From Candidatus Poribacteria bacterium (GTDB taxonomy: Bacteria > Poribacteria > WGA-4E > JAJDTR01), in NCBI GenBank assembly GCA_965222225.1, contig CBDCTK010000002.1, forward strand, positions 832,001 through 896,000: DNA of 64,000 bases. Reading direction: 5' to 3'. Shown piece by piece: positions 2,797 through 41,533 of the stretch. Position 1 is the first letter of the stretch, and each line of letters begins with the position of its first letter. The notes under the pieces are model-generated. The model made no database searches, was not told the DNA's origin, and saw only the letters and a list, made by a program, of their open reading frames with translations. Both the position numbers and the translations under genes were made by a program.

Positions 2797-3336
2797 TTGA
2801 ATAGCTCGCGGACTTAAACAAACTCAGTCTTCATCGGTTTCTACTCCGCCCACTCAATATTCATGGACCTTGTAACTGTTTAGTTCAGTTTACAGATTTT
2901 GTAAAACGGCGTCTATGTTATACGGTATGCCCCACACACCGACATTGCCGATAGTATTCGAAACACTCTCCTCTCTCTTACGCTGGTTGTAGTAATGGAA
3001 TCGGTTGCACGTCTGGTACGGGCTTGTGGTGACTCGATTCATCGGTCCTGGTCTAGCGCTCCTCTGCTCGGTGTGGTCACTTGTTTGATCTGGTTGGCAA
3101 ATCCAGGGCGCACACTCTCCTCCATCATTGCTACGGTGATGCCGTATTGTCACATGATTGTCAATTCATCCGTTTCCTGAATTGCATACTGTGTGCTTTC
3201 GTCCTATCTTTATCTCGCCTCAAGCTGAGGAAGCCCTACTGCATTGTTTTCTTCGGAGATAGACGGCTTCTTATCCCGCATTTTATAGTCATTAAAACTA
3301 AGAATTATACATATAGAATCCTACGTAGTTCGGTTT

Positions 3337-3428
3337 GTAGTAGCGATGAACTGAACGGATAGTGAGGGATCATGGAAGCGAATAGCGGCTGCGATGGAGC
3401 TTCCATAGGAATCCCTTCATTGCGCGTC
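3337..3428. repeat. 92-bp dispersed hairpin repeat, copy 1
   Basis: 82/92 identical by manual alignment to 22232..22323; internal stems AGGGAT/ATCCCT and ATGGAAGC/GCTTCCAT. Confidence 0.85.
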
Positions 3429-3431
3429 TTC

Positions 3432-3487
3432 TGTGGGAGCGAGTTTTCCTCGTGACAGACAGTCGCGACCGGGAGATCGCTCCTACA
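3432..3487 (-). repeat. GTAG-type REP doublet (REPIN-like)
   Basis: Reverse complement reads TGTAGGAGCGATCTCCCGGTCGCGA...CTCGCTCCCACA; near copy at 58505..58559. Confidence 0.8.
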
Positions 3488-3663
3488 CAAGGTTTATCGT
3501 AACAATCCTCAAGCATCAAACCGCCAATTTTGCTCCGAAATTAAAATGTGCAAATATGACTGTAAATGACTATAGAATGAGCCGAAATCTTCAACCAGCG
3601 TGCCTGCCGGGAATCTGAGAAGTCATGCGGGATAACCTGTCATCATAGAGTGCCCAATTTACG

Positions 3664-5925: not shown

Positions 5926-6008
5926 GTTGTTGAAGTTGTCGTGCGTTAGCAAGTTGAGTTTTTCCGGAAGTTGGCGTGTCAAATTCCATTAACCCAACAA
6001 ATATCGGC

Positions 6009-6037
6009 TTGACAACTTCATAACATTGTGCTAGAGT
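6009..6037 (+). promoter_or_regulatory. Putative sigma70 promoter
   Basis: TTGACA-17 bp-TAGAGT with TGn extension, upstream of the 6276 ORF. Confidence 0.5.
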
Positions 6038-6275
6038 GATAGCACGTTTCTAACGGCATCTAAGCTAGCATCTGTAGAAGCGTGAACCACAGAGTCGGTT
6101 TAAGAATTCACGGGTTTTCACAACTTCGAGAGTCGCCCACCAGAAATTCCACCGATATAGTGCAGTTTTGCACAATATCATTGTTGATTCCTCGGACCTA
6201 GGCGAAAGCACAAACGCAGTTTCATTTGCGGCCCAGGATTCAACCATACCCTGACGGAAAAAGGAGAACATTTTC

Positions 6276-6710
6276 ATGGAAGCCCTCAAGCGAGTCATAG
6301 GAGTCGTTCTGATCATAATTGCGGCGATAGTCGCAATTCACACGGTAATCGAGCCGGTTTACCACACTTCCACTGAAGATAGTCCCTACAGTTCCATTTG
6401 GGACATCATCAACTGGCTCTCTCTCATTTCGATAATACTGGGGTTGATATTCGGCTACATTCGCATGAGTCGCGCGGACGCGAACTCGAGCGGTCAAGAG
6501 TTCTTGGCGGCAAATACACAATTCTACGGATTCATGTTCGTAGCCATAATTTTCTTGTGGAACTGGTTCGGCATCAGCAAAGTCGGATCGGACTTTACCG
6601 CCGTGGGCAACGACCCCCGAACGATGGTATGGATAATCTTTCATGCCATACTCCCGTTGTTGAATGGTGCGATGGCTGTCCACCTGCTGCGAGCCGGTGC
6701 CAGCGAATAG
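6276..6710 (+). CDS. Hypothetical 4-TM membrane protein
   Basis: AAGGAGA RBS; four hydrophobic segments. Confidence 0.75.
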   Translation: MEALKRVIGVVLIIIAAIVAIHTVIEPVYHTSTEDSPYSSIWDIINWLSLISIILGLIFGYIRMSRADANSSGQEFLAANTQFYGFMFVAIIFLWNWFGISKVGSDFTAVGNDPRTMVWIIFHAILPLLNGAMAVHLLRAGASE

Positions 6711-6993
6711 CCAACAGTATATGTCTTCAAGATCCTAACGGTGTCTCTTCTGCGCTCGCGTTTGCGGGCGTAGAAGCCTTACAAACTGAGATAAAGAAAA
6801 AATGGCATACTTTCACTGTAAACTTTGCTATTACGCCCTGTAAATACAAGGGCGCTCAACAAGACCATGTTTTTTCCATAATTTCAATTCCGCTAAAGGA
6901 GTCACCCAAGAAAATCACAAACGAGAGAAATAGGTGGCAAGTTGAAATAAACTACAACCACAATATGTTCAACAATAGGAGGTTGTTTGAAAT

Positions 6994-7743
6994 ATGAAGT
7001 ATGTTCGGTATGAAGTGAACGGTAGTGTTTCCTACGGAACCCTTTCCGGTGACACGATTTCAGAACTTAGTGGCGATATTTTTGGGGAGTGCGAAGCAAG
7101 CGGCGCGACGGTTGGGCTCTCTGATGTAAAACTGCTCGCACCAACAGTCCCGTCAAAAATCTTGGCAGTGGGGCTAAACTACCGCAGCCATTTGGGAGGT
7201 GAGCCGGAACCCAAGAACCCGGAGATGTTCATCAAAACACCCTCGTGTATCAACAATCCGAACGGCGAAATTGTGCTTCCGGTTGGTGATGATGATGTTC
7301 ACGCCGAGGGTGAACTGGTCGTCGTCATTAAGAATCGCACAAGAAATGTGACGCCGGAGGAAGCGGTTGATAATATTCTGGGCGTCACATGTGGCAACGA
7401 TGTAAGCGCCCGAACTTGGCAACATAACGATCTGCAGTGGTGGCGCGGCAAATCCTGTGACACGTTCGGTCCGATGGGACCAGCCATCGCTACCGACGTT
7501 GATTACGGCAATCTCCAATTAGAGACACGAATCAACGGAAACGCTATCCAATCCCAGACGACCGCTGATCTTATCTTCCCCGTGCCATCCATTGTCAGTT
7601 TTGTCTCGCAGGTGATGACACTCGAACCGGGCGATGCCATATTCACGGGTACACCGGGCACGACAACGGCGTTAGCCGCTGGAGATACGGTTGAAGTGGA
7701 AATCGAAGGGATTGGCATCCTACAAAACACTGTAGTCAGCTAA
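6994..7743 (+). CDS. Fumarylacetoacetate hydrolase family protein
   Basis: KILAVGLNY, EGELVVVI, GNDVSAR, KSCDTFGPMGP, TLEPGDAIFTGTP; AGGAGG RBS. Confidence 0.93.
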   Translation: MKYVRYEVNGSVSYGTLSGDTISELSGDIFGECEASGATVGLSDVKLLAPTVPSKILAVGLNYRSHLGGEPEPKNPEMFIKTPSCINNPNGEIVLPVGDDDVHAEGELVVVIKNRTRNVTPEEAVDNILGVTCGNDVSARTWQHNDLQWWRGKSCDTFGPMGPAIATDVDYGNLQLETRINGNAIQSQTTADLIFPVPSIVSFVSQVMTLEPGDAIFTGTPGTTTALAAGDTVEVEIEGIGILQNTVVS

Positions 7744-7845
7744 CGTTGGGCGACTGCTAACTCTACGAACGGTATGTAGGTGGTGACCGTGTTGCTCCAA
7801 TCCTCGCGGTCGTCACCCGTTGTAACGTATTGTTCTCACTAAAGT

Positions 7846-8256
7846 ATGGTCTGCCAAATCGAAATTAAACTGAAGGAGTACTCCCGAGGTTTCCATTTAA
7901 TCACTCAGGAGATTCTTCAGCAGGCGGGACCACTGCCGGAAAGCGGAATCCTCCGCGTTTTCATCAAGCACACTTCCGCCGGATTAACCATCAATGAAAA
8001 CGCGGATTACACCGTAAGGGAGGATTTCGAAAGCAGCTTCAACCGCTTAGTTCCCGAAGATGCCGACCATTATGTTCATACGGTGGAAGGCAGCGACGAC
8101 ATGCCCGCGCACATAAAATCAACGCTTGTCGGATCTTCAGTCAGCCTACCGATTACCGACCATCGGTTGAATCTGGGAATCTGGCAAGGAATCTATCTGT
8201 GCGAGTTCAGAAATCGCGGAAGTGGGAGGAATCTAATCCTCACGGTTTATTCGTAG
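7846..8256 (+). CDS. yjbQ: YjbQ/UPF0047 family (secondary thiamine-phosphate synthase)
   Basis: HTSAGLTINENAD, DDMPAHIKS, LGIWQGIYLCEFR. Confidence 0.92.
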   Translation: MVCQIEIKLKEYSRGFHLITQEILQQAGPLPESGILRVFIKHTSAGLTINENADYTVREDFESSFNRLVPEDADHYVHTVEGSDDMPAHIKSTLVGSSVSLPITDHRLNLGIWQGIYLCEFRNRGSGRNLILTVYS

Positions 8257-8286
8257 GATTGGATTAGCAATTGACCGGCTTCAATA

Positions 8287-28282: not shown

Positions 28283-29458
28283 TTAAACGCTATCAATTTT
28301 AACCAATTCCGGCTCAATACGCAGAATTCGATCGTCGTCCGGGGTTGGCTTTCCCCGCCCGTCTCGATTGCTCGTAGCAAGATAAATCTGCCCGTTAGGT
28401 CCCACTAGGACATCACGTAGTCGCCCAAACTCACCTTCAAACAATAACTCTTCATCAACCGCACGACTGCCATCTGGGGAGAGGATTAATCTTACGAGCG
28501 CGGCTCCTCTAAGCGACGTGAAGAGGAGATTCCCTTTCCAGCCGGGGATGAGATCGGCGTTGTAGAAATCTGCGCCGCAAGGAGCTACAGTTGGCGTCCA
28601 AGTTGCCACCGGTTCGACAACACTATTTTCCTTGCAAAAATCCTCTTCCAGACGAACATCGTTATCGCAAAAACCGCGAACGTTAGGCCACCCATAGTTC
28701 CGTCCAATCTCAACTCGGTTGACCTCATCGTTATCCGCCGGACCGTGTTCTGTCAAGTAGAGGTCGTCCATCTCAGGATGAAAGGCCAATCCCTGGGCAT
28801 TACGATGCCCGTATGAGTATACTGTCGTGCCAAACGGATTTCCCGGCGCGGGTTGACCATCCAATGTGAAGCGGAGTACTTTTCCCGCAACGGAGTCAAG
28901 GTCCTGAGAAAGATTTGGCCGGCCGGCATCTCCAGTGGTCATATAGAGAAATCGGTCTCGTCCTATCCCAAGCCGAGATCCGTTGTGAATACCGGCACCA
29001 GGGATGTTATCCAGCAGAATTTCTGTGGCACCGAGCGAAACGCCGTCGAAGCGCATCCTCACCAGCCGATTCCGTATTTCGCGGCCGACGCTAAAAGAGT
29101 GAGCGAGGTAGACAAACGGTTGTGCACCAAAGTCGGGGTGGAAAGCCATTCCCATCAAGCCGCTTTCGCCAACCTCTGTCACCCCAACCACCCCAACTTG
29201 CGTCGCATGACCCCTGGCGGGATCGACGCGATGAATTGTCCCCCTGCGCTCCGTCACCCAAATCACATCGTCAGGTCCCCACGCGATGTCCCACGGCGTG
29301 TCTAACCCGGACGTAAGCGTTTCAACGCGAAGGTTACCTAAGGTAATCAGTCCGTCGTCAATGGAATCGCTCAGAAGGTTCTCAACTCCTGAACACCCGC
29401 ATAGCCAGTGGGCAGAAATCCCTATAGGGATGACTCTAATGAAGTCGCGCCGCCTCAT
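28283..29458 (-). CDS. PQQ-dependent soluble sugar dehydrogenase (YliI/GSDH family), Tat lipoprotein
   Basis: MRRRDFI Tat motif plus LCGC lipobox; HNGSRL, TTGDAG, YGHRNAQG, EHGP, NYGWP, GRLRDV. Confidence 0.9.
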   Translation of the reverse strand: MRRRDFIRVIPIGISAHWLCGCSGVENLLSDSIDDGLITLGNLRVETLTSGLDTPWDIAWGPDDVIWVTERRGTIHRVDPARGHATQVGVVGVTEVGESGLMGMAFHPDFGAQPFVYLAHSFSVGREIRNRLVRMRFDGVSLGATEILLDNIPGAGIHNGSRLGIGRDRFLYMTTGDAGRPNLSQDLDSVAGKVLRFTLDGQPAPGNPFGTTVYSYGHRNAQGLAFHPEMDDLYLTEHGPADNDEVNRVEIGRNYGWPNVRGFCDNDVRLEEDFCKENSVVEPVATWTPTVAPCGADFYNADLIPGWKGNLLFTSLRGAALVRLILSPDGSRAVDEELLFEGEFGRLRDVLVGPNGQIYLATSNRDGRGKPTPDDDRILRIEPELVKIDSV

Positions 29459-29481
29459 TCGGCAGAATTCCAATTCATCGT

Positions 29482-30789
29482 TTATGCGCTGTTATCTTGA
29501 CGACGATCCGTGACTCGACGCGCTTTTAACTCGAATCGCGGTAGTGACCCCTGATTGACTAACTTGACAGCTACGCGTAGACCCAAGGCTCTTCGAATTG
29601 CTTTAACAACCTCATCTCCTAGGGCACGACATTCAGGCGTGCTGGCTTCCAACCGAATCTCCATCTCATCAAGCGCCCCACGACGGTAAACGTCTACCGC
29701 AAACTCTCCAACTTCAGGAAAACTGCGCACGATGTTCTCAATCGTACTCGGATAGACGTTGACACCACGAATGATTAGCGCGTCGTCTAGTCGCCCAATC
29801 ACACCGCCTTCCAGACGCCGATACGAGAGACCACAGCCGCACTCCCCGGAATGCAGCCTCACATGATCGCCCGTCCGGTACCGAATAGCAGGCATACATA
29901 GGCGCCCAAGATTCGTAATTATCAATTCACCTTCATTTGCATAGCTGCCTGTTGTCGGGTCAAAAACCTCAAATATGAACTCACGCTCGTTCAGATGAAC
30001 ACCATCTTGTGCCCGGCACTCAAACCCCCAAGCGCCGACCTCCGTTGCCCCAACATGGTCATAACACTTTGCACCCCACGCAGTTTCAATGCGGCGCTTC
30101 GTTGACGGTATGCTCGCTCCCGGCTCTCCCGCATGAATCGTGACACGGACGCTCGATTTGGCAATATCTATACCCTCTGTTTCTGCAACCTCGGCGAGGT
30201 GGAGCGCGTAGGTCGGAGTACAAACAAGAACCGAAATGTCGTTAAACAGAATTGCCGACAGCCGCTGAAGCGACGTCATCCCGCCTCCGGGAATCGATAA
30301 AGCGCCGATTTGCGCTGCCCCTTCATACGCACTCCAAAAGCCGATAAAGGGACCGAACGAAAATGCAAATAAGATGCGATCCGCGGACGTTACTCCTGTG
30401 GCATCATAAACTGTTTTCCAGCACTGCGCCCACCAGCTCCAACTTTCCGCAGTGTCTAGCCAGCGTAACGGTGCGCCAGTAGTTCCGGACGTCTGATGAA
30501 TTCGGACGTATTGGTCATGGGAGTAGGTATGATTTGTGCCATACGGCGGATTGGAAGTCTGATCTTTGGATAGGTTCTCTTTTGTAGTGAACGGCAAGCG
30601 TCGAATATCGTCAAGTGAGAAGAATTTATCCTCTTCACGAATTCCCGCAGACCGTAGTTTTGTCTGATAAAACGTATTTCCTTTCAGCACTGAAGAAATC
30701 ACACGTTGCAGCTTCTCCAGTTGAATCGTCGTCAACCCATCTCGATCAATCGGTTCAATTGCAGGCGAAGTCCTGTCTTTACTGCTCAT
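29482..30789 (-). CDS. Phenylacetate-CoA ligase (PaaK) family acyl-CoA ligase
   Basis: LPFTTK, HQTSGTTG, TPTYALHL, AGEPG, GATE, RYRTGD, GVNVYP. Confidence 0.9.
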   Translation of the reverse strand: MSSKDRTSPAIEPIDRDGLTTIQLEKLQRVISSVLKGNTFYQTKLRSAGIREEDKFFSLDDIRRLPFTTKENLSKDQTSNPPYGTNHTYSHDQYVRIHQTSGTTGAPLRWLDTAESWSWWAQCWKTVYDATGVTSADRILFAFSFGPFIGFWSAYEGAAQIGALSIPGGGMTSLQRLSAILFNDISVLVCTPTYALHLAEVAETEGIDIAKSSVRVTIHAGEPGASIPSTKRRIETAWGAKCYDHVGATEVGAWGFECRAQDGVHLNEREFIFEVFDPTTGSYANEGELIITNLGRLCMPAIRYRTGDHVRLHSGECGCGLSYRRLEGGVIGRLDDALIIRGVNVYPSTIENIVRSFPEVGEFAVDVYRRGALDEMEIRLEASTPECRALGDEVVKAIRRALGLRVAVKLVNQGSLPRFELKARRVTDRRQDNSA

Positions 30790-30802
30790 ATGCGTGATTG
30801 TG

Positions 30803-31474
30803 TCAGCTCTTGCGCGCTGTGCCATTTGTAGCGCTTATGAGTTCCTCAAGCGACATATCTGCCAAAGAGAACAACTGCAGATCAGCCAATTCAAACGACG
30901 AATGCCGTGTGATTGCATTTGGAACTGCCACACAGAATATACCGGCTCGTTTGGCAGCTGTCACGCCGTTGAGCGAATCCTCAAATACTATGGCTTCGTC
31001 CTCCGCCACCCTTAATTCTTGCAAAGCTTCCAGATACAGGGCAGGATCGGGCTTTACTCGCTCAACGTCCTCAGAACATTTAATCGTACTAAAGTGATGT
31101 TCGAGTTTCAATCTGGATAAGTTGTCGACTACCCAACTCCTCGGAGAGCTGGAAGCAACACCGAGCCGTAGTCCTAGTGTTTGGGCCTCGGCGATTCGAT
31201 CTTTTACGCCAGGCAAGACCGATTGCAAATCTATCAAACTGCTCTTCAGCGCATTCCGTTTCTGATGGAGTTCCGCTCGATCGAGGGGGTGTCCAAGCTG
31301 TGCTTCAAGATAGTCATACGGGTCAAAGGCATCTGCTGTACCAACGCACTTCAACCACTCCGATATGGGCAACGAGCAACCGTAGTCTTGATATATTTCC
31401 TGCCAAGATTGGTAGACGGGACTTTCAGTGTCAAGGATAAGTCCATCGAAATCGAAGATTACAGCCTTTATCAT
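30803..31474 (-). CDS. HAD-family phosphatase (beta-PGM/YhcW-like)
   Basis: IFDFDGLILDTE, ASSS, KPDP, FEDSLNG. Confidence 0.92.
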   Translation of the reverse strand: MIKAVIFDFDGLILDTESPVYQSWQEIYQDYGCSLPISEWLKCVGTADAFDPYDYLEAQLGHPLDRAELHQKRNALKSSLIDLQSVLPGVKDRIAEAQTLGLRLGVASSSPRSWVVDNLSRLKLEHHFSTIKCSEDVERVKPDPALYLEALQELRVAEDEAIVFEDSLNGVTAAKRAGIFCVAVPNAITRHSSFELADLQLFSLADMSLEELISATNGTARKS

Positions 31475-31475
31475 G

Positions 31476-32501
31476 TTAATTTTTCTTGATTTTCCCCCAA
31501 ACCGACGCAAGCTTGAACATAGGTTCAACAGCGGTTGACACAACTCCGGCGTCATATTCTTCGACAGTCATTAGAATTTCTGGTCCGATGTTTGCCACAA
31601 CGCCTCCCAGAGCATAAACCTTTCCATCAACTTCCCCCGACTGCAGGAAGACACGGGGCGTAGGCATATTCAGCTTTGTCGTCCATTGATCGAGCGCCGG
31701 GTAGTATTCCTCTACGGCCTGAACACCCGGTCCTTGGATGAATGTTGTTCCGCCGATGGTATAAATCCTATCATTCAGGACCTCAGCCGCAAATGCGGTT
31801 CGTCCTGTTGGCATATCTGTTTTGGTAGCCCATGAATCTGTTAGCGGGTCGTATTCCTCAACCATTGACAAGACTGGCCCCTGAACCGCAGGTGCTCCGC
31901 CAATAACGTAAATTTTTCCATTGACGGCTGCAGCAGCCATACCCGATCTCGGATTTGGCATATCCGCTTTCCTTGTCCACGAGTCCGTCGCTGGATCATA
32001 CTCTTCAACCGACGCCAGAACGGGACCTAGATTTGTTGCTATACCGCCGATGGCGTATATCTTTCCGTTAACCGTGGCGGTCGAGAACAATGCTCGAGCG
32101 GTGGGTATATCAGCTCGCTGCATCCAAGTATCCGTTGCCGGATTGTACTCTTCAACCGTTGGAATCGCGGGTTCGGTATCGGTCCAACCCCCGATTACGT
32201 ATAGTTTGCCATCAACGACGGCGATGGACATCCCGGCTCGCGCGGTTGGCATGTCTGCGCGTTCACTCCATTCGTCCGTCGACGGGTTGTAGGCATGTGT
32301 GCTCGGAAGGACCTGCGCAAGCATTCCACCCATAACATAGACGAGCCCATCTGTCGCACTAGCAGAGAAAAACAACCGTGGACCCATCATATCCGCCTTT
32401 TGATTCCACTGCTCCACCTGTGCGAAGCCCACCCTAGGAAGGACTGCAATCAGACTCACTGTAAATGCAACAATCAAAACGTAGCATCGGTTCATAGTCA
32501 T
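31476..32501 (-). CDS. Secreted Kelch-repeat protein with AVEPxxKLAxxWGxIK tail
   Basis: Signal peptide; six YxxGG...Y..W repeats (e.g. KIYAIGG, VEEYDP, W..KADMP); GGAG RBS. Confidence 0.92.
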   Translation of the reverse strand: MTMNRCYVLIVAFTVSLIAVLPRVGFAQVEQWNQKADMMGPRLFFSASATDGLVYVMGGMLAQVLPSTHAYNPSTDEWSERADMPTARAGMSIAVVDGKLYVIGGWTDTEPAIPTVEEYNPATDTWMQRADIPTARALFSTATVNGKIYAIGGIATNLGPVLASVEEYDPATDSWTRKADMPNPRSGMAAAAVNGKIYVIGGAPAVQGPVLSMVEEYDPLTDSWATKTDMPTGRTAFAAEVLNDRIYTIGGTTFIQGPGVQAVEEYYPALDQWTTKLNMPTPRVFLQSGEVDGKVYALGGVVANIGPEILMTVEEYDAGVVSTAVEPMFKLASVWGKIKKN

Positions 32502-32632
32502 TTTCTCCGTAGCGATATGCGAATATCTCGTGTAGGGAATGGCGATCATTATTCCCTACACGACAAGAGTTTTTCAACACGAGACAATCGCAGAAATCAT
32601 CATTTCTGCTTTTTGCGTAAGTCCTATATTCC

Positions 32633-33916
32633 TTAATTCTGCCCTGTCATGTCTAAACAGACCATCTCATTCTCATTTCGCGCATAGAGCCTGCCGTTGG
32701 CAAGCGTTGGCACCGTCCAACACAGTCCACTCAAGACTTCTGCACTCGCAACCTCATTATACGCGGAAGGTGTCGCCTCTGCTAACCCCAACTTGCCGCG
32801 GTCACTGAGAATAATCAGGTGCTCGTCTGCAAGCATGAGCGTGCCTTTACCGAACCCACGTGTTTTCCATTGTTCCATGCCGGTGTTTGCATCAATGCAT
32901 TTCAAGATAGCGTTGTCAAAGCCATAAAGGTAATCGCCATGCAAAACCGACGTGGCAAAATGGTTCTTCATGTCCTGATTTTTCCAGATTTCTTCAACCT
33001 TCATCTCAACAGGTTCTCGGTGGCTCATGCCCCCTTCACCTTCTCCAGTGGTAGATCCTGCGGACATCATAACCCGAACCCTTACGACCGCAGCTCCCTT
33101 GCCATACCCGGAGGAAATGAAGATTTTGTCCGGTGCAATAAAAACGGGAGTGGCGGCGTTGACATCATACTCCGTCTGCCAAGGGTACGTCCAGTAAAGG
33201 TTTCCGTTTTCGGGTGAAACCGAAACCAACTGAGTACCCGTGAAGACAATGAGTTGCCGAATCCCATCAATTGTAACAGCAATAGGCGAGGAGTATCCAA
33301 GAATGTCCGTATGCGAACTCCAGACGACATCACCGCCTTTTTTATCAAAAGCGACGATAGATTTTCCATCCTTACCACCCACCTCAACCAGAAGCAAGTC
33401 ACCTTCAACCAACGGCGACGTGCAGCCACCCCATCTAGGTATTTTGCTTCCGAACTCTTCTTGCAAATCGTGCGACCATGCCTTCTCTCCATTTTCGGTA
33501 TTCAAAGCGTACAATTTACCTTGCGCGGTAACCGTGAAAAGGAGCTCTCCATCGATGGTCGGAGTTGCACGAGGCCCATTGCCGCCCTGCGACTCGTGGT
33601 AGTTGCTATCAGATCGAAACCGCCAAACCTCTTCCCCATTTGACGCATTGAGACAAACGACAAATTCATCGTCCGCTTCCGAGAACATCGTGTAAATACG
33701 CTCACCAACAACAGAAATTCCGGAAAATCCTTCTCCGAGTGAAACTTTCCAGAGGACTTGGGGGCCACTGTCTGCCCATTCTTTGAGAAGTCCCGTTTCC
33801 TCGGAGATTCCATTGCGATTGGGACCACGCCACTGTGACCAATCCGCAGCACCGACGATTGAGACGACGCCATAAAGCAACACGCATATGATTAAGAACC
33901 CTGTAATTTTCTTCAT
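32633..33916 (-). CDS. Secreted PQQ-like (BamB-type) beta-propeller protein
   Basis: Signal peptide then DWSQWRGPNRNG; repeated TG/xxW blades; WTVPTLANGRLYAR. Confidence 0.88.
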   Translation of the reverse strand: MKKITGFLIICVLLYGVVSIVGAADWSQWRGPNRNGISEETGLLKEWADSGPQVLWKVSLGEGFSGISVVGERIYTMFSEADDEFVVCLNASNGEEVWRFRSDSNYHESQGGNGPRATPTIDGELLFTVTAQGKLYALNTENGEKAWSHDLQEEFGSKIPRWGGCTSPLVEGDLLLVEVGGKDGKSIVAFDKKGGDVVWSSHTDILGYSSPIAVTIDGIRQLIVFTGTQLVSVSPENGNLYWTYPWQTEYDVNAATPVFIAPDKIFISSGYGKGAAVVRVRVMMSAGSTTGEGEGGMSHREPVEMKVEEIWKNQDMKNHFATSVLHGDYLYGFDNAILKCIDANTGMEQWKTRGFGKGTLMLADEHLIILSDRGKLGLAEATPSAYNEVASAEVLSGLCWTVPTLANGRLYARNENEMVCLDMTGQN

Positions 33917-34046
33917 TAATAATCCTTCCCATTACAATCCATACTTCATTTTATTACAACAAAACCGCATCAGACCAAGATTTGACCCCAAGATGCAATT
34001 GCCCAATACGATTGCCAACTCCCGTGCACAATAATACGCGCCTATT

Positions 34047-36830
34047 TTAGCTTACACGGAGGTGAGTATTTTCAATAGGTTCGACGCCGTTAGGGATCTC
34101 GCCGGTTTCCTTTATATGGTCAATAATTCCGCGCTTATCGGCGTAGACATTTTCTGTTCGCTTCATCCATTTGGGATCTAGTTCGTCCATGTCTACTTCA
34201 ACAGTAAGTGGAGAACGGGCGACACGCACACGATGAATAGAGTTGCCGGCTTTCTTAAGCCCGATAGATTCAAGAAAGCCTTTGAGGTATTGTGCAACGC
34301 CTTTTCGGTTATTCTCTAACTGCTCTCGCATTAGCTGAAGTTCGCGAATCTCTTCTTGAAGAATTTTGATGTGACCGTCCAGAATCTTCTGTTGAGTACG
34401 AATGTTTTTTATGTAAGCAGCACAGTTGTGAATCTTCTCATCGAATGCGAGGTCAAGCGTCTCGAATTGTGAACTATCAAAATCCTCACCTTCAAGTACA
34501 AAGAGACTTTCTTCTATCTCGGCGGGAACGTCGTATAACTTGAATGTATCTGTCATTGTGCGTAGCACGGGAGGATGTGTGCCGTGCCCGTGGTCCATTT
34601 CCAACTTGTAGCGATTCTCTCTCCTCTGGTTTACCAAAATACATGGCAATCCCATAAACTGCATTCCGCCTTTTATCACGGCCTGCCCCTTCTCTGTCGT
34701 TCGGAGACTACCGTGTAGTGAATCTCGGGATAATAGTCCATTTTGAACGAGTTGAAATGCTAAATGTTTCCATTCCTCTTTACTATGCTCTGAACCGATA
34801 CCATAGATTGGGAGTCTATCATGCCTGCTCTTGATAACTTTCTGCGATTTTGAACCACGTAGGACATTAATAATGTGACTCTCGCCGAAAAATTCCCCTG
34901 TCTGAACAGCACATGAGAGAAATTGTTGAGCCCGTGTGGTCAAGTCAACTTTTTCCTTTTGTTCATTCAGGCAATTGTCACACATCCCACAACTTTCACT
35001 CTCGTATTGCTCGCCAAAGTAGGCTAACAGTTCCTTACGTCTGCATTCTGTCGAAGTCGCCCAATCAACAATCATGTTTAATCGCTCCAACCGTCCCTCG
35101 CGCTCGGAGGACGCACCTTGATCGATGAAATGCCTGATGGTGTCCATATCCGCCCAGCTGAACAGTAGGAGACACTCCGCACGATTCCCGTCCCGTCCAG
35201 CGCGACCAATTTCCTGATAGTAAGATTCCGGTTCTTTCGGTAAGCCTACGTGTAGCACGAAGCGCACATCCTCTTTATCTATCCCCATCCCGAAGGCAAC
35301 CGTCTCCACTATCACCCGGATTTCGCCGGAAATAAAAGCGTTCTGATTCTGACTACGAATATCGCTATCCAACCCCGCGTGATACGGGAGTGCCAGAATG
35401 CCCCGTTGCGTTAATTCTTCAGCCAACGATTCAACTTGTTCTCGTGTTTGACAGTAAATTATACCGGATTCCTCCCGATGTTTGTTGAGAAACACGAGAG
35501 ACTGTTCACGCGACTCAACTTTCGGTTCAACCGCGAGGAAAAGATTCTCCCTGTCAAGATTAGCAATAAATTGATGTTCCTCTCGAATCCTGAGCAAGTG
35601 CCTGATGTCTTCTTGAACGCGCGGCGTGGCAGTGGCTGTGAGCGCGAGGCAGACAGCCTGCGGATACCGTTCTCGTACAGAGACTAACTCTCGATATTCT
35701 GGACGAAAATCGTATCCCCACTCTGAAATACAGTGCGCTTCATCAATAGCAAGACATGAGATATTTGATTCGTCTAGCATCAACAGTATTTCGGGGCGCA
35801 TGAGCGTTTCAGGAGCCATATAGAGCAACTTGATTTCACCCCGTTTTACACGCTGCATCGTGTCAAGGTATTCTGGATGACCGAGGGTGCTGTTGAGAAA
35901 AACACCGCTGACATCACGCTGTTGTAACTGCATGACTTGGTCCTGCATTAATGAAATTAGCGGAGAAATGACAACGGTTACACCATCGAAGATGAGCGCA
36001 GGCACTTGGTAACAGAGCGACTTCCCTCCCCCCGTCGGTAGAACAATGAGTAGATCATGCTGCTTGAGGATGTGGTCGATGATTCCCTCTTGTAACGGCC
36101 GGAATTGTACATGCCCGAACACATTTTGGAGAATCTCTAGGGGCGTCCGAAGCAGCATTTGAGCTGAAGAAGATTCCACGTCAATGGGGCATTCAAGTTC
36201 TTCCTGTTTTGCCTCTTCGAGAAACCATCCGGAAAGCTGTGCGTAGCAACGCAATTCTGCGTCTGGTGTGTTTTCCGGTCGCCACCAATGTGCTAGTGAG
36301 ACGCGGAGGAGCGTGCCTGCGGGAATAACTTCAAGTGGTTCTTGAAAACCGACAAAGGTGAGCGTGCACCCACCATTTTCAGTGGGATAACGATACCGCA
36401 CCCTCCTTCCTTCTGTATCGCGGGTGAGCGGCCAGTCCGGTCGCCAAAACGTTGTGCTGTAGGGTGGAATACCGCTCCGCTCAGCGACGTAAAGCGGGCC
36501 TCTCTCGGTGTTTTGAAACAACCCTTCATAAAGTGTGTTTGGCCCCCCGCTTCTCGAAGGCATTAAGAGTTCAATGGCACTTACTAGCTCTCTCACGGTG
36601 AGGAAGTGCTCCCTCTCATAAACAACAATATTTTCGTTATGCGGTGCAATCAGCGAAGTTTCAGGCTCAGACGAAATTACCCAAATATCACCAACGTTAT
36701 ATTCACGATTCGCTCCGTCATGTGGGTCGGCGTCGAACGGAACGAGGCGGACGCTTTCTCCCTGCTCCGTAATCGCGCCAATGCAAGCGCCGCCACCCAT
36801 TCGGGTTTTCGCAACAATCAGAACTTTCAT
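34047..36830 (-). CDS. recQ: RecQ-family helicase fused to an N-terminal dual-OB-like domain and a C-terminal siphovirus Gp157-like domain (no HRDC)
   Basis: LPTGGGKSLCYQ, SPLISLMQDQV, DEAHC, ALTATA, YHAGL, QEIGRAGRDG, Zn-site CRR..CGMCDNC, WH; extra about 200 aa N-terminal and about 170 aa C-terminal. Confidence 0.9.
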   Translation of the reverse strand: MKVLIVAKTRMGGGACIGAITEQGESVRLVPFDADPHDGANREYNVGDIWVISSEPETSLIAPHNENIVVYEREHFLTVRELVSAIELLMPSRSGGPNTLYEGLFQNTERGPLYVAERSGIPPYSTTFWRPDWPLTRDTEGRRVRYRYPTENGGCTLTFVGFQEPLEVIPAGTLLRVSLAHWWRPENTPDAELRCYAQLSGWFLEEAKQEELECPIDVESSSAQMLLRTPLEILQNVFGHVQFRPLQEGIIDHILKQHDLLIVLPTGGGKSLCYQVPALIFDGVTVVISPLISLMQDQVMQLQQRDVSGVFLNSTLGHPEYLDTMQRVKRGEIKLLYMAPETLMRPEILLMLDESNISCLAIDEAHCISEWGYDFRPEYRELVSVRERYPQAVCLALTATATPRVQEDIRHLLRIREEHQFIANLDRENLFLAVEPKVESREQSLVFLNKHREESGIIYCQTREQVESLAEELTQRGILALPYHAGLDSDIRSQNQNAFISGEIRVIVETVAFGMGIDKEDVRFVLHVGLPKEPESYYQEIGRAGRDGNRAECLLLFSWADMDTIRHFIDQGASSEREGRLERLNMIVDWATSTECRRKELLAYFGEQYESESCGMCDNCLNEQKEKVDLTTRAQQFLSCAVQTGEFFGESHIINVLRGSKSQKVIKSRHDRLPIYGIGSEHSKEEWKHLAFQLVQNGLLSRDSLHGSLRTTEKGQAVIKGGMQFMGLPCILVNQRRENRYKLEMDHGHGTHPPVLRTMTDTFKLYDVPAEIEESLFVLEGEDFDSSQFETLDLAFDEKIHNCAAYIKNIRTQQKILDGHIKILQEEIRELQLMREQLENNRKGVAQYLKGFLESIGLKKAGNSIHRVRVARSPLTVEVDMDELDPKWMKRTENVYADKRGIIDHIKETGEIPNGVEPIENTHLRVS

Positions 36831-37315
36831 GGCACAATATGCTCCAATTCCAACTTGAATACTGTTGCTAGTCTGTCTGCTACCAATGAGCGGTGACAGG
36901 CTTCGGGATTCCTCTCAACACAAAAGAGCGCCACAACCTGTGCGTTCGCCTCAAGATTTTTCAGTAGGCTGTGGGGGTCAAACTCTGCAAGACATTCGGT
37001 GTGATAAGCCGCGATAAACGCCTTGCCCAATGCCGTACGCTTACGTTTGACAATTTTCGTCGCTTTGTCTGCTTTTACCTGCTTATCACGGACCGTTTTT
37101 GTTGGCGCGAGATCTTTGCGGTGAATATAGCGAATACCCAACTCTGCCAGCCGATTCTGCAGGCGTTGACTATTGGCAAACGCATAAGTTGACCCGCGCA
37201 ACCCCCGTCGGGAACGAATATCACAGAATGTATCAACGTTCGCATCACGTAACGCCCCGAAGAAACTAGCTTCATCAAACCCGTATACCCCGATGGTGAC
37301 AACTTTGGGTTTCAT
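36827..37315 (-). CDS. DUF488 family protein
   Basis: TIG, CDIR, IRYIH..DLAP, LFCVE...CHR; stop overlaps recQ start (ATGA). Confidence 0.88.
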   Translation of the reverse strand: MKPKVVTIGVYGFDEASFFGALRDANVDTFCDIRSRRGLRGSTYAFANSQRLQNRLAELGIRYIHRKDLAPTKTVRDKQVKADKATKIVKRKRTALGKAFIAAYHTECLAEFDPHSLLKNLEANAQVVALFCVERNPEACHRSLVADRLATVFKLELEHIVP

Positions 37316-37321
37316 GGCTAA

Positions 37322-37879
37322 TCACTGGTACCGCTTACGCGACTGGAACGCATCTCCACCAAACAACTGCATCTGTCCCCCCGTGAGGCGATTGATGATA
37401 TGCATCTGAGACCGTAGCTCATTGTTTTCATCAATATGAGTTATCTGTATGTTCCGCCTTTGCAGTGTCTCTCCGATGAGTTTGCTCCGATGACAGTTCT
37501 CCGGTTTTCCCTCACTGCACATGAGGACAACGCGTTGCTTTTGCGCGACAGCCGTTTGAAGGCGTTTAATTCCGAACTGATAGCGTCCGGTCTTCTTCAC
37601 CCTTTCGTAGTCTACCTTCCCGTTCACATCATAGCACTCTTCATCGTCGGGCTGGCCGCCCAGAGTGTCACCCATGAAAACATACCGAACTCCTTGTCGT
37701 TGCAACTCCGCCTCCAGCGGCTCTCTGGAAAATTCAGGTTTATAGCGCGAATAGGGAGCAGACCGCACGTCAATCAGATACGCAATCTCATGCTCTTGTA
37801 GCACTTCAATGAATTCATCGACCGAACGGCTACCGTAGCCGATGGTATAAATGGTGACCGTTTCTTGGGATTTTTCCAT
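37322..37879 (-). CDS. DUF488 family protein
   Basis: IYTIGYG, LIDVRSAPYSR, YVFMGDTLGG, LMCSE...CHR. Confidence 0.92.
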   Translation of the reverse strand: MEKSQETVTIYTIGYGSRSVDEFIEVLQEHEIAYLIDVRSAPYSRYKPEFSREPLEAELQRQGVRYVFMGDTLGGQPDDEECYDVNGKVDYERVKKTGRYQFGIKRLQTAVAQKQRVVLMCSEGKPENCHRSKLIGETLQRRNIQITHIDENNELRSQMHIINRLTGGQMQLFGGDAFQSRKRYQ

Positions 37880-37890
37880 GTCCGGGAGAT

Positions 37891-37919
37891 ATTATCACAC
37901 AGTGCAGAACGAAAACCAA
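37891..37919 (-). promoter_or_regulatory. Putative extended -10 promoter for the DUF488-DUF488-RecQ operon
   Basis: Minus strand TTGGTT-17 bp-GATAAT with TGn; ATG 11 nt downstream of the -10 box. Confidence 0.45.
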
Positions 37920-37949
37920 CGGATAAACACCGCGATTCCCACTCGAGGT

Positions 37950-39296
37950 TTACGTATATCGCGCATTTTGATATTTAGGTGCGTAAAACTCCGGCAACAA
38001 CCCATCCACCTGAAGTAAGCCTTTCCGTGTCAATTCCACTGCATCTTGGTGAAAGGTCAACATACCCTCGTCTTGCAGCTTTTTATATGTCATTCCAAAT
38101 TCTTCCAAAATGTCGGCATTAAACTTCTCGCGGAAATAGGCTGTGTCTATCTTCCCCATTTTCAATTGCAGTATCATTTCCCGTGTTAGTCGCTCTGATG
38201 GGGTGGTCAAAAACGCGCGACTCAACGGCAGCCGGTCTGCTTCGATCGAACCGATGTAATCCTGCCAACTTGTCGCATTCTGATAATGTGCGCCATTGAT
38301 ATGCGAAAAGGAAGCAACGCCTGTACCCATCATGTCGCTCCCCTGCCAGACCGCATTGCGGTAGACAAACTTGCACGGTTTGTCTTTCTTAACCATTGTG
38401 TATGCGCTAGAGTTCCCGTATCCAGCCAGTTCAAACTGCTCAAATGCATAATTATGCCATTCGCGTTTGGTTTTCCAATTTGCCACAGGCAAGGCTTCGC
38501 CACCAAGAATATTCTGTGAATAGGTGGCGTTAAACGGCAATTCCATCTGATACACGGTAATACTGTCGGGATTCAAATCGATAGTCTGTCTGACTGTTTC
38601 GCGCCAACTCTCCCACGTCTCGCCAACCATGCCTGCAATCAAGTCTATGTTGACCTGATCGAAATCGAGCGCTTCAATCCACGGCATCACACGAAAGACT
38701 TCCTTAGAAAGATGCGCTCTCCCGTTTTCCGCCAAGATTTCGTCGTTGAGATTTTCGACACCGAGGCTAAGTCGGGTTACACCAATTTCCCTGATAGCTT
38801 CTAACTTCGTTTGCGTCAGAGTACCGGGTTCACACTCAAATGCGATTTCGTCCGCACCGTCCCACGAAATCGCTTTTTTCAACCGATCGACAAGCGCTTT
38901 CAAATGTTTGGCGCTTATGTAGGATGGCGTCCCCCCGCCAAAGTAGACGAACGACAGGTGCCTTCCCCTAACAATCGGCATTCTACTGTATAATTCGACC
39001 TCTTTAGCCAATGCATCAAGATAGGTCTCGATTTCAGAACTATTTTTGTCAGTATAAACCCGAAAATAACAGAATTTACACCGTTTTCGGCAAAACGGAA
39101 TGTGTAGATAGAGACCCAACATTGCCCCTGGCAATGCAGGCGCATTCAACACCGTCCTCGCATCGGGGACAGCTTCTTTGCTCCAGAAAGAATACGGTGG
39201 ATAGTTCGAGACAAAGACGCTTCCGACTTCCGTGTTTTCCGATTCTAGCCGTGTAGTCGCGGGTTCTGACTTCACTCTTTTGCCTTGATTACTCAT
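37950..39296 (-). CDS. HemN-like (class C) radical SAM enzyme
   Basis: LYLHIPFCRKRCKFC, YFGGGTPS, RLSLG, NIDLIAG; N-terminal SNYPPYSFW; GGGAG RBS. Confidence 0.9.
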   Translation of the reverse strand: MSNQGKRVKSEPATTRLESENTEVGSVFVSNYPPYSFWSKEAVPDARTVLNAPALPGAMLGLYLHIPFCRKRCKFCYFRVYTDKNSSEIETYLDALAKEVELYSRMPIVRGRHLSFVYFGGGTPSYISAKHLKALVDRLKKAISWDGADEIAFECEPGTLTQTKLEAIREIGVTRLSLGVENLNDEILAENGRAHLSKEVFRVMPWIEALDFDQVNIDLIAGMVGETWESWRETVRQTIDLNPDSITVYQMELPFNATYSQNILGGEALPVANWKTKREWHNYAFEQFELAGYGNSSAYTMVKKDKPCKFVYRNAVWQGSDMMGTGVASFSHINGAHYQNATSWQDYIGSIEADRLPLSRAFLTTPSERLTREMILQLKMGKIDTAYFREKFNADILEEFGMTYKKLQDEGMLTFHQDAVELTRKGLLQVDGLLPEFYAPKYQNARYT

Positions 39297-40440
39297 CGTC
39301 TCCCTTTCTGCCGAAACAGTATAAAATCCCGTCGTCCGATCCAATCACCAACTTACCACCGCCAACGCTCGCTGAGGCCATGATCGAAGCCCCGGTAACA
39401 AATTCCCAAACTTGTTCGCCCGAATGAATATTCAACCCGTATATGACTCCGCCCGTGGTTCCAAAAAACACCCGTTCGCCAGCGATGACTGGCGACGAAT
39501 CCACTCGCGACTTCACAGGGGAACTCCACAGCAGATCGCCGGTTTCCGGCTTGAGAGCGTGAATCATCTTATCCCTGCCACCGACAATGAGGACATCGTT
39601 GGTAACAGCAGCAGAAGCATAGAACGGGAACTGTATCTTCGGATTCTCGTAGCGCCAAAGTATTGTCGCGCTTTGCAAGTCAATTCCTAACACTCGATTA
39701 CCGAACGTTCCTGCATAAACGCGATGATTCAGCGTTGCCGGGCTGGCGGCGATGTAATCCCCCAGCTCTATACGCTTTTCCTCCTGACCGTTTTCCAAAC
39801 TGATGAGGCGAAGGTAACTATCACACCCGGTGACAACCGCGGCTCCGTTAGAAACCGCTGGAGAGCCATGCACATAACCTTCGGTTTGAAATTTCCAAAT
39901 CAGAGAACCGTCAGCAATGGACAAACAGTAAAGATACTGATCGTAGGAACCGAAGATAACGCGACCCTTGGCAAAGGTTGCCGATGAAATAATACCCGCC
40001 CCAGTACGGAAAATCCACAGTTTCGCGCCGTTCTTTGCATCGACCGCGTGAAAATCACCCGTTTCATCGCCGAAGTAGACCACTTCTCCATATACAGACG
40101 GAGACGATTTAATTTCGTTCGAGGCTTTGTACTTCCACTTGGGTTCCCCGGTAAGGAGGTTGACCGCATACAGATGCCCGTCCCACGAGCCTACATACAC
40201 GGTCTTTCCCGCGATGGCTGCCGTCGATTCAATCCCTTCCCCGGATTGATAGGTCCATAGAAGTTCAAGATCGTCGGGTAATTTGCTGGTAGCAACCCCC
40301 GTTAGCGCCGAATTGCCTCGGAAGCTAGGCCAATCTTCCGATGAAACCGCACCTCGTCCAACCGAGTGAAGCAGAATACAACCTAGAAAAACGTAAATCG
40401 TAATGCATGATACCCGAGAGAGTTTAGTAGGCTGACTCAT
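39289..40440 (-). CDS. Secreted PQQ-like (BamB-type) beta-propeller protein
   Basis: DWPSFRG followed by regular SSP...VYxG..DG.LYA...TG...W repeats. Confidence 0.9.
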   Translation of the reverse strand: MSQPTKLSRVSCITIYVFLGCILLHSVGRGAVSSEDWPSFRGNSALTGVATSKLPDDLELLWTYQSGEGIESTAAIAGKTVYVGSWDGHLYAVNLLTGEPKWKYKASNEIKSSPSVYGEVVYFGDETGDFHAVDAKNGAKLWIFRTGAGIISSATFAKGRVIFGSYDQYLYCLSIADGSLIWKFQTEGYVHGSPAVSNGAAVVTGCDSYLRLISLENGQEEKRIELGDYIAASPATLNHRVYAGTFGNRVLGIDLQSATILWRYENPKIQFPFYASAAVTNDVLIVGGRDKMIHALKPETGDLLWSSPVKSRVDSSPVIAGERVFFGTTGGVIYGLNIHSGEQVWEFVTGASIMASASVGGGKLVIGSDDGILYCFGRKGDDE

Positions 40441-41533
40441 AGAGCTGAAGTAACTCGGTTTCACTAACAGACCGCGGGTTGAATTTTCCTGTCCATTGGT
40501 TCGCAGCCTTTTCTGCCAATTCAGGCAAATCGCCCTTATTAATCTCAAAATCACGTAGCATACTAGGCAAATGTGCTGTGGTTTTCAATTCACATATACG
40601 TTCATAAAGTGATGAGGGATGCAGCTCCTGATAACACTCGTCCACTATCTGGGAATTGAACTTGATGACGTGCGGAAGCATTAGTCCAACCGCAATCCCA
40701 TGAGTAATGCCGTATTTTGCGGTCAATGGATTGGCGCAGGCGTGCGCGGCACCTAGCATCGAATACTCTATGGCAATGCCCGCAAAATGCGATCCTAGCA
40801 GCATTTGACTCTGTGCCTCAAGGTCGGTTGGATCGGTAATCGCGCCCTCAAAGCCGTTTTCAAGTAAACGCCATGCCTCTCTCGAAAATAGTTGTGAAAC
40901 CGGATTCCGGCGCGTTGTAACATAGCTTTCCACGGCGTGAGAGATAGCATCAATTCCCGAACTCGCCCTTACTTCTTGGGGGGCACTAACGGTCAACACG
41001 GGATCAAGAATGACCGTTCGAAACCGAGCCTTCTTATCGCCACACGCCATCTTAACATGACTTTTTTCCTGGGCAATTAACGCAAAAGATTGAGCTTCGC
41101 TGCCTGTCCCGGCAGTCGTTGGGATTCCAATTGACGGCAGCATGGGTTTGGTTGCCTTGTCTTTCCCCCAATAGTCCTCCATTTTCCCGCCATTTGTAAG
41201 GATAAAGTTTATCCCTTTAGCGCAATCCATTGTGCTTCCGCCGCCCAGTCCAACGATGAGGTCAGGTTGTCCTACAATTTTGGCAAACCGCACGCCATTA
41301 GCAACATGCTTCGTTGTCGGATTCTCTTCAACATCCTCAAACACGGCACCGCTGATAGATTCTTCTATGAGAAAATCGATCGCTTTTTCGACGATGCCCG
41401 CTTCGGCAATGCCAGGGTCGGTGACCACTAGTACGTCATGCGCTCCCAGTGCCTTTGCCAATATCCCTAGCTTACTTAACGCGTTTTCTCCAAAGACCAC
41501 GCGGGTCGTAGGTTGGAAGTCAAAGCAGTGCAT
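40424..41533 (-). CDS. Iron-containing alcohol dehydrogenase
   Basis: GLGGGS..DCAK, PTTAGTGSE, DAISHAVE, H..A..L, HG. Confidence 0.93.
   Translation of the reverse strand: MHCFDFQPTTRVVFGENALSKLGILAKALGAHDVLVVTDPGIAEAGIVEKAIDFLIEESISGAVFEDVEENPTTKHVANGVRFAKIVGQPDLIVGLGGGSTMDCAKGINFILTNGGKMEDYWGKDKATKPMLPSIGIPTTAGTGSEAQSFALIAQEKSHVKMACGDKKARFRTVILDPVLTVSAPQEVRASSGIDAISHAVESYVTTRRNPVSQLFSREAWRLLENGFEGAITDPTDLEAQSQMLLGSHFAGIAIEYSMLGAAHACANPLTAKYGITHGIAVGLMLPHVIKFNSQIVDECYQELHPSSLYERICELKTTAHLPSMLRDFEINKGDLPELAEKAANQWTGKFNPRSVSETELLQLYESAY

Follow-up and report, generated by a model that had tools for sequence, protein, structure and literature searches.

A RecQ helicase of a Poribacteria-like bacterium with an N-terminal DuOB domain and a phage-family Gp157 tail

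Genes and domains at the locus

The window, a 64,000-nucleotide stretch of contig CBDCTK010000002.1 from a Candidatus Poribacteria bacterium, carries on its minus strand a gene (34047..36830) whose product joins an N-terminal DuOB domain, a RecQ helicase core and a C-terminal domain of the phage Sipho_Gp157 family (Table 1). Reading of the frame and its translation give a single open reading frame (ORF) of 927 codons plus a stop, and the uninterrupted three-part organization that a preliminary description had read from the sequence is confirmed.

All six Pfam domains of the 927-amino acid (aa) protein score above their curated cut-offs. DuOB (PF22557) occupies residues 1–202 (E 1.1e-22, 81.6 bits against a cut-off of 27), where residues 1–203 had been assigned to a dual-OB domain, and the core contains matches to DEAD (residues 244–407), Helicase_C (447–548), RecQ_Zn_bind (560–621) and RQC (625–726) in the order described earlier. 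The translation contains GGGKS, DEAH and GRAGRDG motifs and a four-Cys cluster, and the helicase, zinc-binding and RQC signatures are shown at the level of sequence to be intact. A score of 508.8 bits against the NCBIfam model TIGR00614 (cut-off 219.8) places the protein in the RecQ family, and that against the E. coli-type recQ equivalog TIGR01389 (635.2 bits) is 5 bits short of the 640.2 cut-off; the latter alignment covers model positions 3–500 of 591, i.e. without the HRDC end, and no HRDC domain is matched in the protein by Pfam, even at E≤1. The C-terminal domain matches Sipho_Gp157 (PF05565) at residues 764–925 over model positions 1–160 of 162 (E 3.5e-14, 53.6 bits against a cut-off of 28.6; 59 bits when the domain is scanned alone), and residues 759–926 match PHROG 253, labelled 'Mu Gam-like end protection' (E 2.1e-15). 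The limits first proposed for this Gp157-like tail (34047..34556) and those of the Pfam match (34053..34541) agree within five residues. The RQC domain ends at 34653 and the Gp157-like domain begins at 34541.

Both DUF488 genes lie directly upstream of the RecQ gene on the same strand, in line with the earlier remark that the dual-OB domain accompanies DUF488 genes, and the genome has no further genes of this family. The two are distant paralogues (35% identity over 43 residues) with a spacer of 6 nucleotides between them, and the stop codon of DUF488b overlaps the start of the RecQ gene as ATGA. Twenty loci around DuOB matches, from six genera, were examined, and the order DUF488a, DUF488b, DuOB, RecQ core is found at 18 of them in five genera; the C-x-E...CHR motif is kept in 20 of 20 DUF488a and 19 of 19 DUF488b orthologues. 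By its arrangement the RecQ gene is the last, putatively cotranscribed gene of a tight DUF488-DUF488-(DuOB-RecQ) operon. Promoter and terminator scans of 33800–38100 were uninformative, with one site each against 5.3 and 3.6 expected. The two exceptions to the gene order are L041, a divergent stand-alone DuOB, and L029, a syntenic locus from the window's own genus (G026:C1:3423036-3434036) from which DUF488b, the RecQ core and the Gp157 tail are gone. Between the same flanking genes L029 retains a 286-aa DuOB-only protein (ORF 5001–5861) and a truncated DUF488a, and a scan of that genome finds no Gp157 anywhere in it.

In both genera that carry the Gp157 tail the operon lies between a HemN-like radical-SAM gene on its upstream side and a gene for a PQQ propeller on its downstream side. 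It sits among several genes for secreted beta-propeller proteins (PQQ_2/BamB-like and Kelch repeats; minus strand of the window, 28283–33916 and 39289–40554), and in relatives the downstream PQQ gene is duplicated in tandem.

Table 1. Features of the operon in the window, and C-terminal forms of DuOB-RecQ proteins in the phylum (positions of relatives refer to the locus named).
Feature	Position	Strand	Size, locus and basis
DUF488 gene a, first operon gene	37322..37879	-	185 aa; Pfam DUF488, E 6.1e-23
DUF488 gene b	36827..37315	-	162 aa; Pfam DUF488, E 1.7e-14; DUF488-N3a, 27.4 bits (cut-off 27)
DuOB-RecQ-Gp157 gene	34047..36830	-	927 aa plus stop; ORF, translation, Pfam, NCBIfam
DuOB domain, residues 1–202, two tandem OB folds (predicted)	36225..36830	-	PF22557, AlphaFold2 model, PDB fold matches
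RecQ catalytic core: DEAD, Helicase_C, Zn-binding, RQC winged helix	34653..36101	-	Pfam, TIGR00614, TIGR01389
Linker, residues 727–763, site of HRDC in relatives	34542..34652	-	Tail alignment
Sipho_Gp157-like domain, residues 764–927: long helix and small globular head (predicted)	34050..34541	-	PF05565, PHROG 253, AlphaFold2 model
Exchangeable cassette, ~residues 619–869: RQC, linker, first part of Gp157	34222..34972	-	X18 joint and identity to P0004
No tail behind RQC			741 aa; L040
Tail of one HRDC			825 and 826 aa; L033, L037
Tail of two HRDC			927 aa; L036
Tail of three HRDC	4998-8279	+	1093 aa; L038 (G072)
Tail of five HRDC	2228-6004	-	1258 aa; L039 (G174)
Tail of DUF3276	3296-6001	-	901 aa; L034 (G048); PF11680, E 4.5e-10
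Tail of HRDC and Gp157			1016 aa; L030; HRDC at 751–816
Tail of Gp157 alone			947 and 928 aa; L031, L032, L022

The fused gene and its tails across the phylum

The three-part protein is not confined to the window. A search of 5.8 billion proteins lists 120 relatives (as clusters), all with DuOB and RecQ domains, and 25 of the 120 also carry Gp157 in the same protein, on separate contigs of which some span several megabases; 17 of these 25 are without HRDC (924–947 aa) and eight have it (1015–1022 aa). A whole-genome scan of the phylum finds Gp157 in 23 of 176 genomes. The architecture, which the preliminary description had proposed to seek in other genomes, is present as Gp157 within open frames of 931–1030 aa in eight of ten genomes of the window's genus (its own included) and in three of 20 of a second genus, and the remaining Gp157 matches are free genes in frames of 169–238 aa, or fragments.

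Contigs from other sequencing runs cross the junction between RQC and tail (34541–34652) uninterrupted, with one to six differing letters, as the same description had asked of reads. Two of these, X3 record 4 (33900–35270) and X4 record 12 (34053–35060), come from other DNA studies, and the third, X9 record 21 (34530–35040), comes from an RNA library. All four runs used (X3, X4, X9 and X18) consist of contigs, which give no basis for expression level or transcript ends, and the gaps in cover of X9 (35508–35641) and X18 (34302–34971) carry no evidential weight. A chimeric assembly, or read-through from one gene into another, can be dismissed for practical purposes as the source of the frame, since the same continuous frame is present in 11 genomes and 25 protein clusters and the three contigs above bridge the junction; nothing in favour of a chimera was found. 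A frame break in the listed relative L035 (G046, ~5231–5243) lies in the helicase, between core residues 32 and 34 and away from the junction, and the DuOB ORF there ends at 256 aa; the genome is a single contig, and the break may reflect pseudogenisation or a sequencing error.

Three genes of the window's assembly (5.7 Mb, 94.9% complete) pass the cut-off for the RecQ family, and only that at 34047..36830 contains RQC. The others encode a protein of 612 aa and a fusion of RecQ with UvrD that exceeds 1148 aa; both are without RQC, which is the outcome of the check for a separate canonical recQ suggested earlier. The RecQ-UvrD fusion (L003, G000:C2:2661220-2665239) lies within a 1250-aa frame and is composed of ~300 N-terminal residues without an assigned family, DEAD, Helicase_C, no RQC, and the start of a UvrD-type helicase. 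One DuOB, one Gp157 and a RecJ are present in the genome, no HRDC is found anywhere in the 94.9%-complete assembly, and Ku was not found in it.

DuOB is found in 114 of the 176 genomes of the phylum, and in about 100 of these 114 (a count from the table of matches) it lies in frames of at least 700 aa and therefore is fused to a helicase. The closest relatives are named by their sources as Candidatus Poribacteria; DuOB-RecQ fragments are also source-named from Chloroflexota, Caldilineaceae, Anaerolineales, Deltaproteobacteria and Clostridia bins, and stand-alone DuOB proteins of 211–253 aa are common in other phyla (ESM-Atlas clusters). The taxonomy is recovered in an 18-row tree of DuOB and the core, with the window's genus monophyletic (100/99). 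Because DuOB is so widespread in helicase-sized frames, the operon is kept at 18 of 20 loci and the gene is the only RQC-bearing RecQ of its genome, DuOB-RecQ is, as judged from these sequences, the ordinary RecQ of the lineage and no rarity. The architecture had been described as without known precedent; the DuOB-RecQ portion is not unusual for this lineage, and the Gp157 fusion is found in two genera.

The C-terminal end is the variable part of the protein. The forms listed in Table 1 come from a Pfam survey of 12 full-length proteins, the twelfth being the 286-aa DuOB-only remnant of L029; the three and five tandem HRDC domains of L038 and L039 are an unusually high copy number for bacterial RecQ. 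The preliminary description had placed Gp157 in the position of HRDC. No HRDC is present in the window's protein, as that implies, but the change is not a simple replacement, since relatives have the order RQC-HRDC-Gp157 and an alignment of the tails shows that Gp157-only forms keep the linker on both flanks of a clean HRDC deletion. DUF3276 enters at the same insertion point as the HRDC and Gp157 tails. Just downstream of the DUF3276-form gene is a non-coding Gp157 remnant (L034:3128-3280; residues 122–172, its last 51 residues, 69% identical). Gp157 therefore preceded DUF3276 at that locus, and the remnant is the fossil of one cassette having replaced another.

A tree of the first 600 residues was built from 31 rows, comprising all 25 listed Gp157-bearing clusters, the window's protein and five of the 95 clusters listed besides. 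HRDC-bearing and HRDC-less forms are intermixed in this tree: P0019 groups with P0012 (100/98), P0004 and P0006 with the window's protein (100/99), and P0009 with P0003 and P0005. Identity between P0004 and the window's protein is 86–98% over residues 1–600 and 44–70% over residues 601–900, with 95 extra residues, and P0007, although more distant overall than P0004, has a tail 68–90% identical to that of the window. In a close relative represented by X18 record 1, 749 letters (34222–34972) are swapped for 1034 unlike letters. This mosaic profile of identity partly explains the interleaving, and together the interleaved tree, the mosaic profile and the X18 replacement indicate that the RQC-tail segment is exchanged by recombination, with repeated swapping or remodelling of the tail, and that HRDC has been lost more than once. 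By these comparisons the tail is one of a set of exchangeable C-terminal cassettes, which are none, one to five HRDC domains, DUF3276, HRDC with Gp157, and Gp157 alone.

Predicted structures of the DuOB domain and the tail

An AlphaFold2 model of DuOB (215 aa, 41 sequences) is almost all beta and has a predicted local distance difference test score (pLDDT) of 91.5 and a predicted template modelling score (pTM) of 0.88. Its best PDB neighbours are the tandem-OB HIN-200 domains (E 2.2e-5 to 1e-3), with template modelling (TM) scores of only 0.33–0.42, followed by BRCA2, Teb1, POT1, CST and TEBP-alpha. The profile match, the tandem-OB fold and the two adjacent DUF488 genes place the domain in the DuOB family, and the model is consistent with a tandem-OB nucleic-acid binder that has its own geometry.

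Relatives of the tail were sought among 1.84 billion representatives, giving 379 at E≤0.001, of which the best 150 were inspected. Among these 150, 145 are free proteins of 66–210 aa, two are linked to a helicase (P0010, 927 aa, and P0122, a 563-aa fragment with HRDC and Gp157) and three have other N-terminal extensions; the nearest free protein to the fused tail, P0123, is 42% identical to it. Rare Gp157 fusions of another kind are P0145 (331 aa) and P0125 (288 aa), one of which begins with a LAGLIDADG endonuclease domain (E 2.5e-7) and the other with a 130-residue stretch without an assigned family. The free-standing Gp157 genes of the phylum (L011–L013 and L017–L020) are not evident as donors of the fused tail, being 25–31% identical to the fused domain and detected by tblastn in three of seven cases. 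According to PMC8093625, gp157-like genes of Firmicutes phages are located just upstream of erf-ssb or sak4 modules, and phage gp157-like and Mu gam-like genes share a position from which its authors infer 'their analogous function'.

The AlphaFold2 model of the tail (174 aa, 76-sequence alignment; pLDDT 92.0, pTM 0.62) consists of a short helix, a 70-residue helix (residues 33–103 of the 174-aa piece), a hairpin, and a small head that contains a further helix. It has 13 matches at E≤0.001 among predicted structures of phage Gp157 proteins in BFVD (best E 3.6e-7, TM 0.57–0.62) and none at this threshold in the PDB by Foldseek, and the tail sequence profile finds coiled-coil noise only among PDB chains. 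The full-length profile match and the fold of the phage members place the tail in PF05565. With most of the best relatives stand-alone and the fold that of phage models, the earlier suggestion that a domain of phage recombination modules has been captured is upheld.

A model of two tail copies scores 0.72, against 0.00 for the best of three controls. Among proteins of solved structure, 20 of 30 pairs of one chain and one of 23 single chains attain this mark, counts that are only rough because our own alignment was used. The dimer runs share at least 97% of contacts, with a partner pLDDT of at least 87, and the closest contacts are of residue 54 with 92 and of 71 with 71, which implies antiparallel pairing. 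The tail is thus predicted to form an antiparallel homodimer. The globular C-terminal part holds the most conserved positions of the family (an invariant G162 and DKxAIxxHxKxTGExPxGV...HLR), and the tails of the two Gp157-bearing genera are 60–76% identical.

These features bear on whether the tail has any specificity at all. It could be a plain coiled-coil oligomerisation appendage, or a near-neutral accretion on a helicase for which HRDC is dispensable, with no preference for DNA ends or partners; its bulk is one 70-residue helix that finds only coiled coils among PDB sequences, the homodimer score is high, and the tail-less (741 aa) and HRDC-less forms in the phylum imply that it is not essential to the helicase, which at L029 has itself been lost entirely from the locus in a genome of the same genus. 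We regard this as quite unlikely, because the conserved positions of the globular part are kept at 60–76% identity between genera, which a mere zipper would not need, and the full-length domain is retained in all 25 fused clusters.

Interpretation and comparison with known systems

The reading that we prefer, at a probability of roughly 0.55, is that the gene encodes the principal RecQ of a Poribacteria-like bacterium in which HRDC has been replaced by the phage-family Gp157 domain, and that this domain acts as a dimerising, substrate-targeting module in a helicase of DNA-end or gap repair. The motifs of the core suggest that it would unwind DNA in the 3'→5' direction like other RecQ enzymes, while the N-terminal tandem OB folds would bind single-stranded DNA or a DNA end. 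Both DUF488 enzymes, which belong to the rhodanese-phosphatase superfamily and keep its catalytic C...CHR motif, may prepare DNA termini for the helicase by cleaning or modifying them. From the models the Gp157 tail probably dimerises and retargets the enzyme: it would pair two RecQ molecules through its antiparallel coiled coil and take over targeting from HRDC by bringing the helicase to DNA ends or recombination intermediates, which are the setting of stand-alone Gp157 beside phage annealing proteins. A DNA-end processing role for DUF488 is reportedly given in the abstract of a 2023 paper by Burroughs and Aravind, which probably also defines DuOB and the DUF488 subclades. Rhodanese-phosphatase enzymes are described as removing terminal phosphates in PMC9503650, a related paper from the same group.

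The preliminary description had also raised anti-phage defence. The Gp157 domain might serve the operon as a sensor or decoy for phage annealing proteins, SSB or phage DNA ends, and the helicase and DUF488 enzymes that it recruits would then take apart recombination or replication intermediates of the phage. In favour of such a role are the phage origin of the tail, the RQC-tail mosaic between close relatives with tail types interleaved on the helicase tree as in conflict genes, and the occurrence of RecQ-like helicases in defence systems (model matches to DpdF, PsyrT and BrxH). DUF488a matches the PADLOC candidate PDC-M45B (2.8e-53), and DUF488b matches PDC-M45C (2.8e-13) and PDC-M19A, both at about 2.5e-13. 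DUF488-clade enzymes also reportedly belong to virus-host conflict systems, according to the same abstract of Burroughs and Aravind. PDC-M45 is however only a candidate system, no paper mentioning it was found in the literature search, and M45A is absent from the 25 of 34 helicase matches listed and from separate scans of DuOB and of the tail, which yield nothing in PADLOC above coiled-coil noise. With the NCBIfam DpdF model the protein reaches 193 bits, where 550 are required. The neighbours of the operon are metabolic and propeller genes, with no integrase, restriction or other defence gene seen there. Two genera share the chromosomal position of the operon, and the tree of the helicase agrees with taxonomy; the gene is present in one copy, no other RecQ of the genome has RQC, and the recQ equivalog score of the protein is only just below the cut-off. 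In sequence and context the gene thus has a housekeeping character (fixed locus, vertical descent, single copy, near-equivalog score), which repair appears to fit better than anti-phage defence; the latter is not favoured and we think it unlikely.

Several points weigh against repair by a retargeted helicase as we have framed it. The PADLOC matches of both DUF488 proteins are among them, and a mosaic, fast-changing tail is the pattern expected of a conflict gene too. To our knowledge no biochemical function has been described for any Gp157 protein, the tail dimer is a model rather than a measurement and was built on our own alignment, the end-processing role of DUF488 is taken from an abstract, and contigs from an RNA library are no proof of transcription. 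The 'resistance protein' label of Gp157 goes back, according to PMC6356513, to a non-coding origin element beside the gene. A link of the tail to Mu Gam is only weakly hinted. PF07352 (Gam) is not matched by the 927-aa protein at E≤1 and is matched by only six of 76 Gp157 family members (best E 6.7e-4). Comparison of the tail with Mu Gam alone by hhalign gives a probability of 7.5%, and with an alignment of 11 Gam sequences at 72–93% identity, too shallow for strong profile comparison, 21% (P 0.001, over 37 columns in the C-terminal head). The BFVD fold search places a Gam-like crAss002 protein only at rank 22 (E 0.026), and the PDB fold search has no neighbour of the tail to offer at E≤0.001. 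A genuine Mu Gam gene scores over the cut-off in none of the 176 genomes of the phylum, which thus offers none for a local profile.

A more far-reaching version of the repair reading is tentative and, in our view, doubtful. The tail might make RecQ an antiparallel two-motor machine, with helicases at opposite ends of a rigid rod of ~100 Å and heads that bind DNA ends or recombination intermediates. Such a machine would be a bacterial counterpart, in a single polypeptide, of eukaryotic partnerships of a RecQ with an end binder (WRN-Ku), or of BLM convergent branch migration, working with the DUF488 end-cleaning enzymes, and the rapid swapping of RQC-tail segments would reflect selection by phage or plasmid factors aimed at this module. 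If true, this would give a first functional handle on the widespread phage Gp157 family.

Whichever role applies, the scope is limited: two genera of an uncultivated phylum show a variant domain architecture, and the fusion is no new kind of system. The literature search found nothing that combines Gp157 with RecQ and nothing that discusses DuOB, the paper of Burroughs and Aravind lying outside its coverage. Accessory domains of RecQ decide the DNA structures on which it acts, and the series of tails in the phylum, including the PUR-like DUF3276, on a constant helicase and locus is a ready-made targeting experiment. The fusion also ties the uncharacterised Gp157 family and the DUF488/DuOB pair to a defined enzyme, a predicted 3'→5' DNA helicase, by which their roles become testable in vitro.

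Among known systems, E. coli-type RecQ (TIGR01389) has the same helicase lobes, Zn-binding and RQC domains, with DEAH, GGGKS and a four-Cys cluster, and a RecJ is likewise present in the window's genome; the window's protein differs in its N-terminal DuOB, its C-terminal Gp157, the lack of HRDC, and the two DUF488 genes. The high PADLOC scores of the Dpd helicase DpdF (NF041063) span the generic RecQ core only, and the NCBIfam score given above keeps the protein out of that family. WRN binds Ku, and the resemblance to WRN-Ku and to Mu Gam or Ku is an analogy of working only, drawn from the PHROG 253 label, the shared slot in phage modules and a local alignment of motifs; homology of Gam or Ku to the tail is not established. 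Stand-alone phage Sipho_Gp157 proteins share the full-length domain match and the predicted fold, but are ~160-aa replication or recombination proteins of phages, whereas here the domain is joined to a cellular helicase, a joining seen in this RecQ group only among the best 150 of the 379 relatives. The RecQ of Deinococcus radiodurans is reported to have three HRDC domains and offers a precedent for variable C-terminal accessory domains that tune RecQ, although only the number of HRDC copies varies there and no foreign domain is involved. Closest of all is the DuOB-RecQ-HRDC protein of the phylum (~829 aa, the commonest form), which lies in the same operon, is 66–70% identical in the core, and carries one to five copies of HRDC where the window's protein has Gp157.

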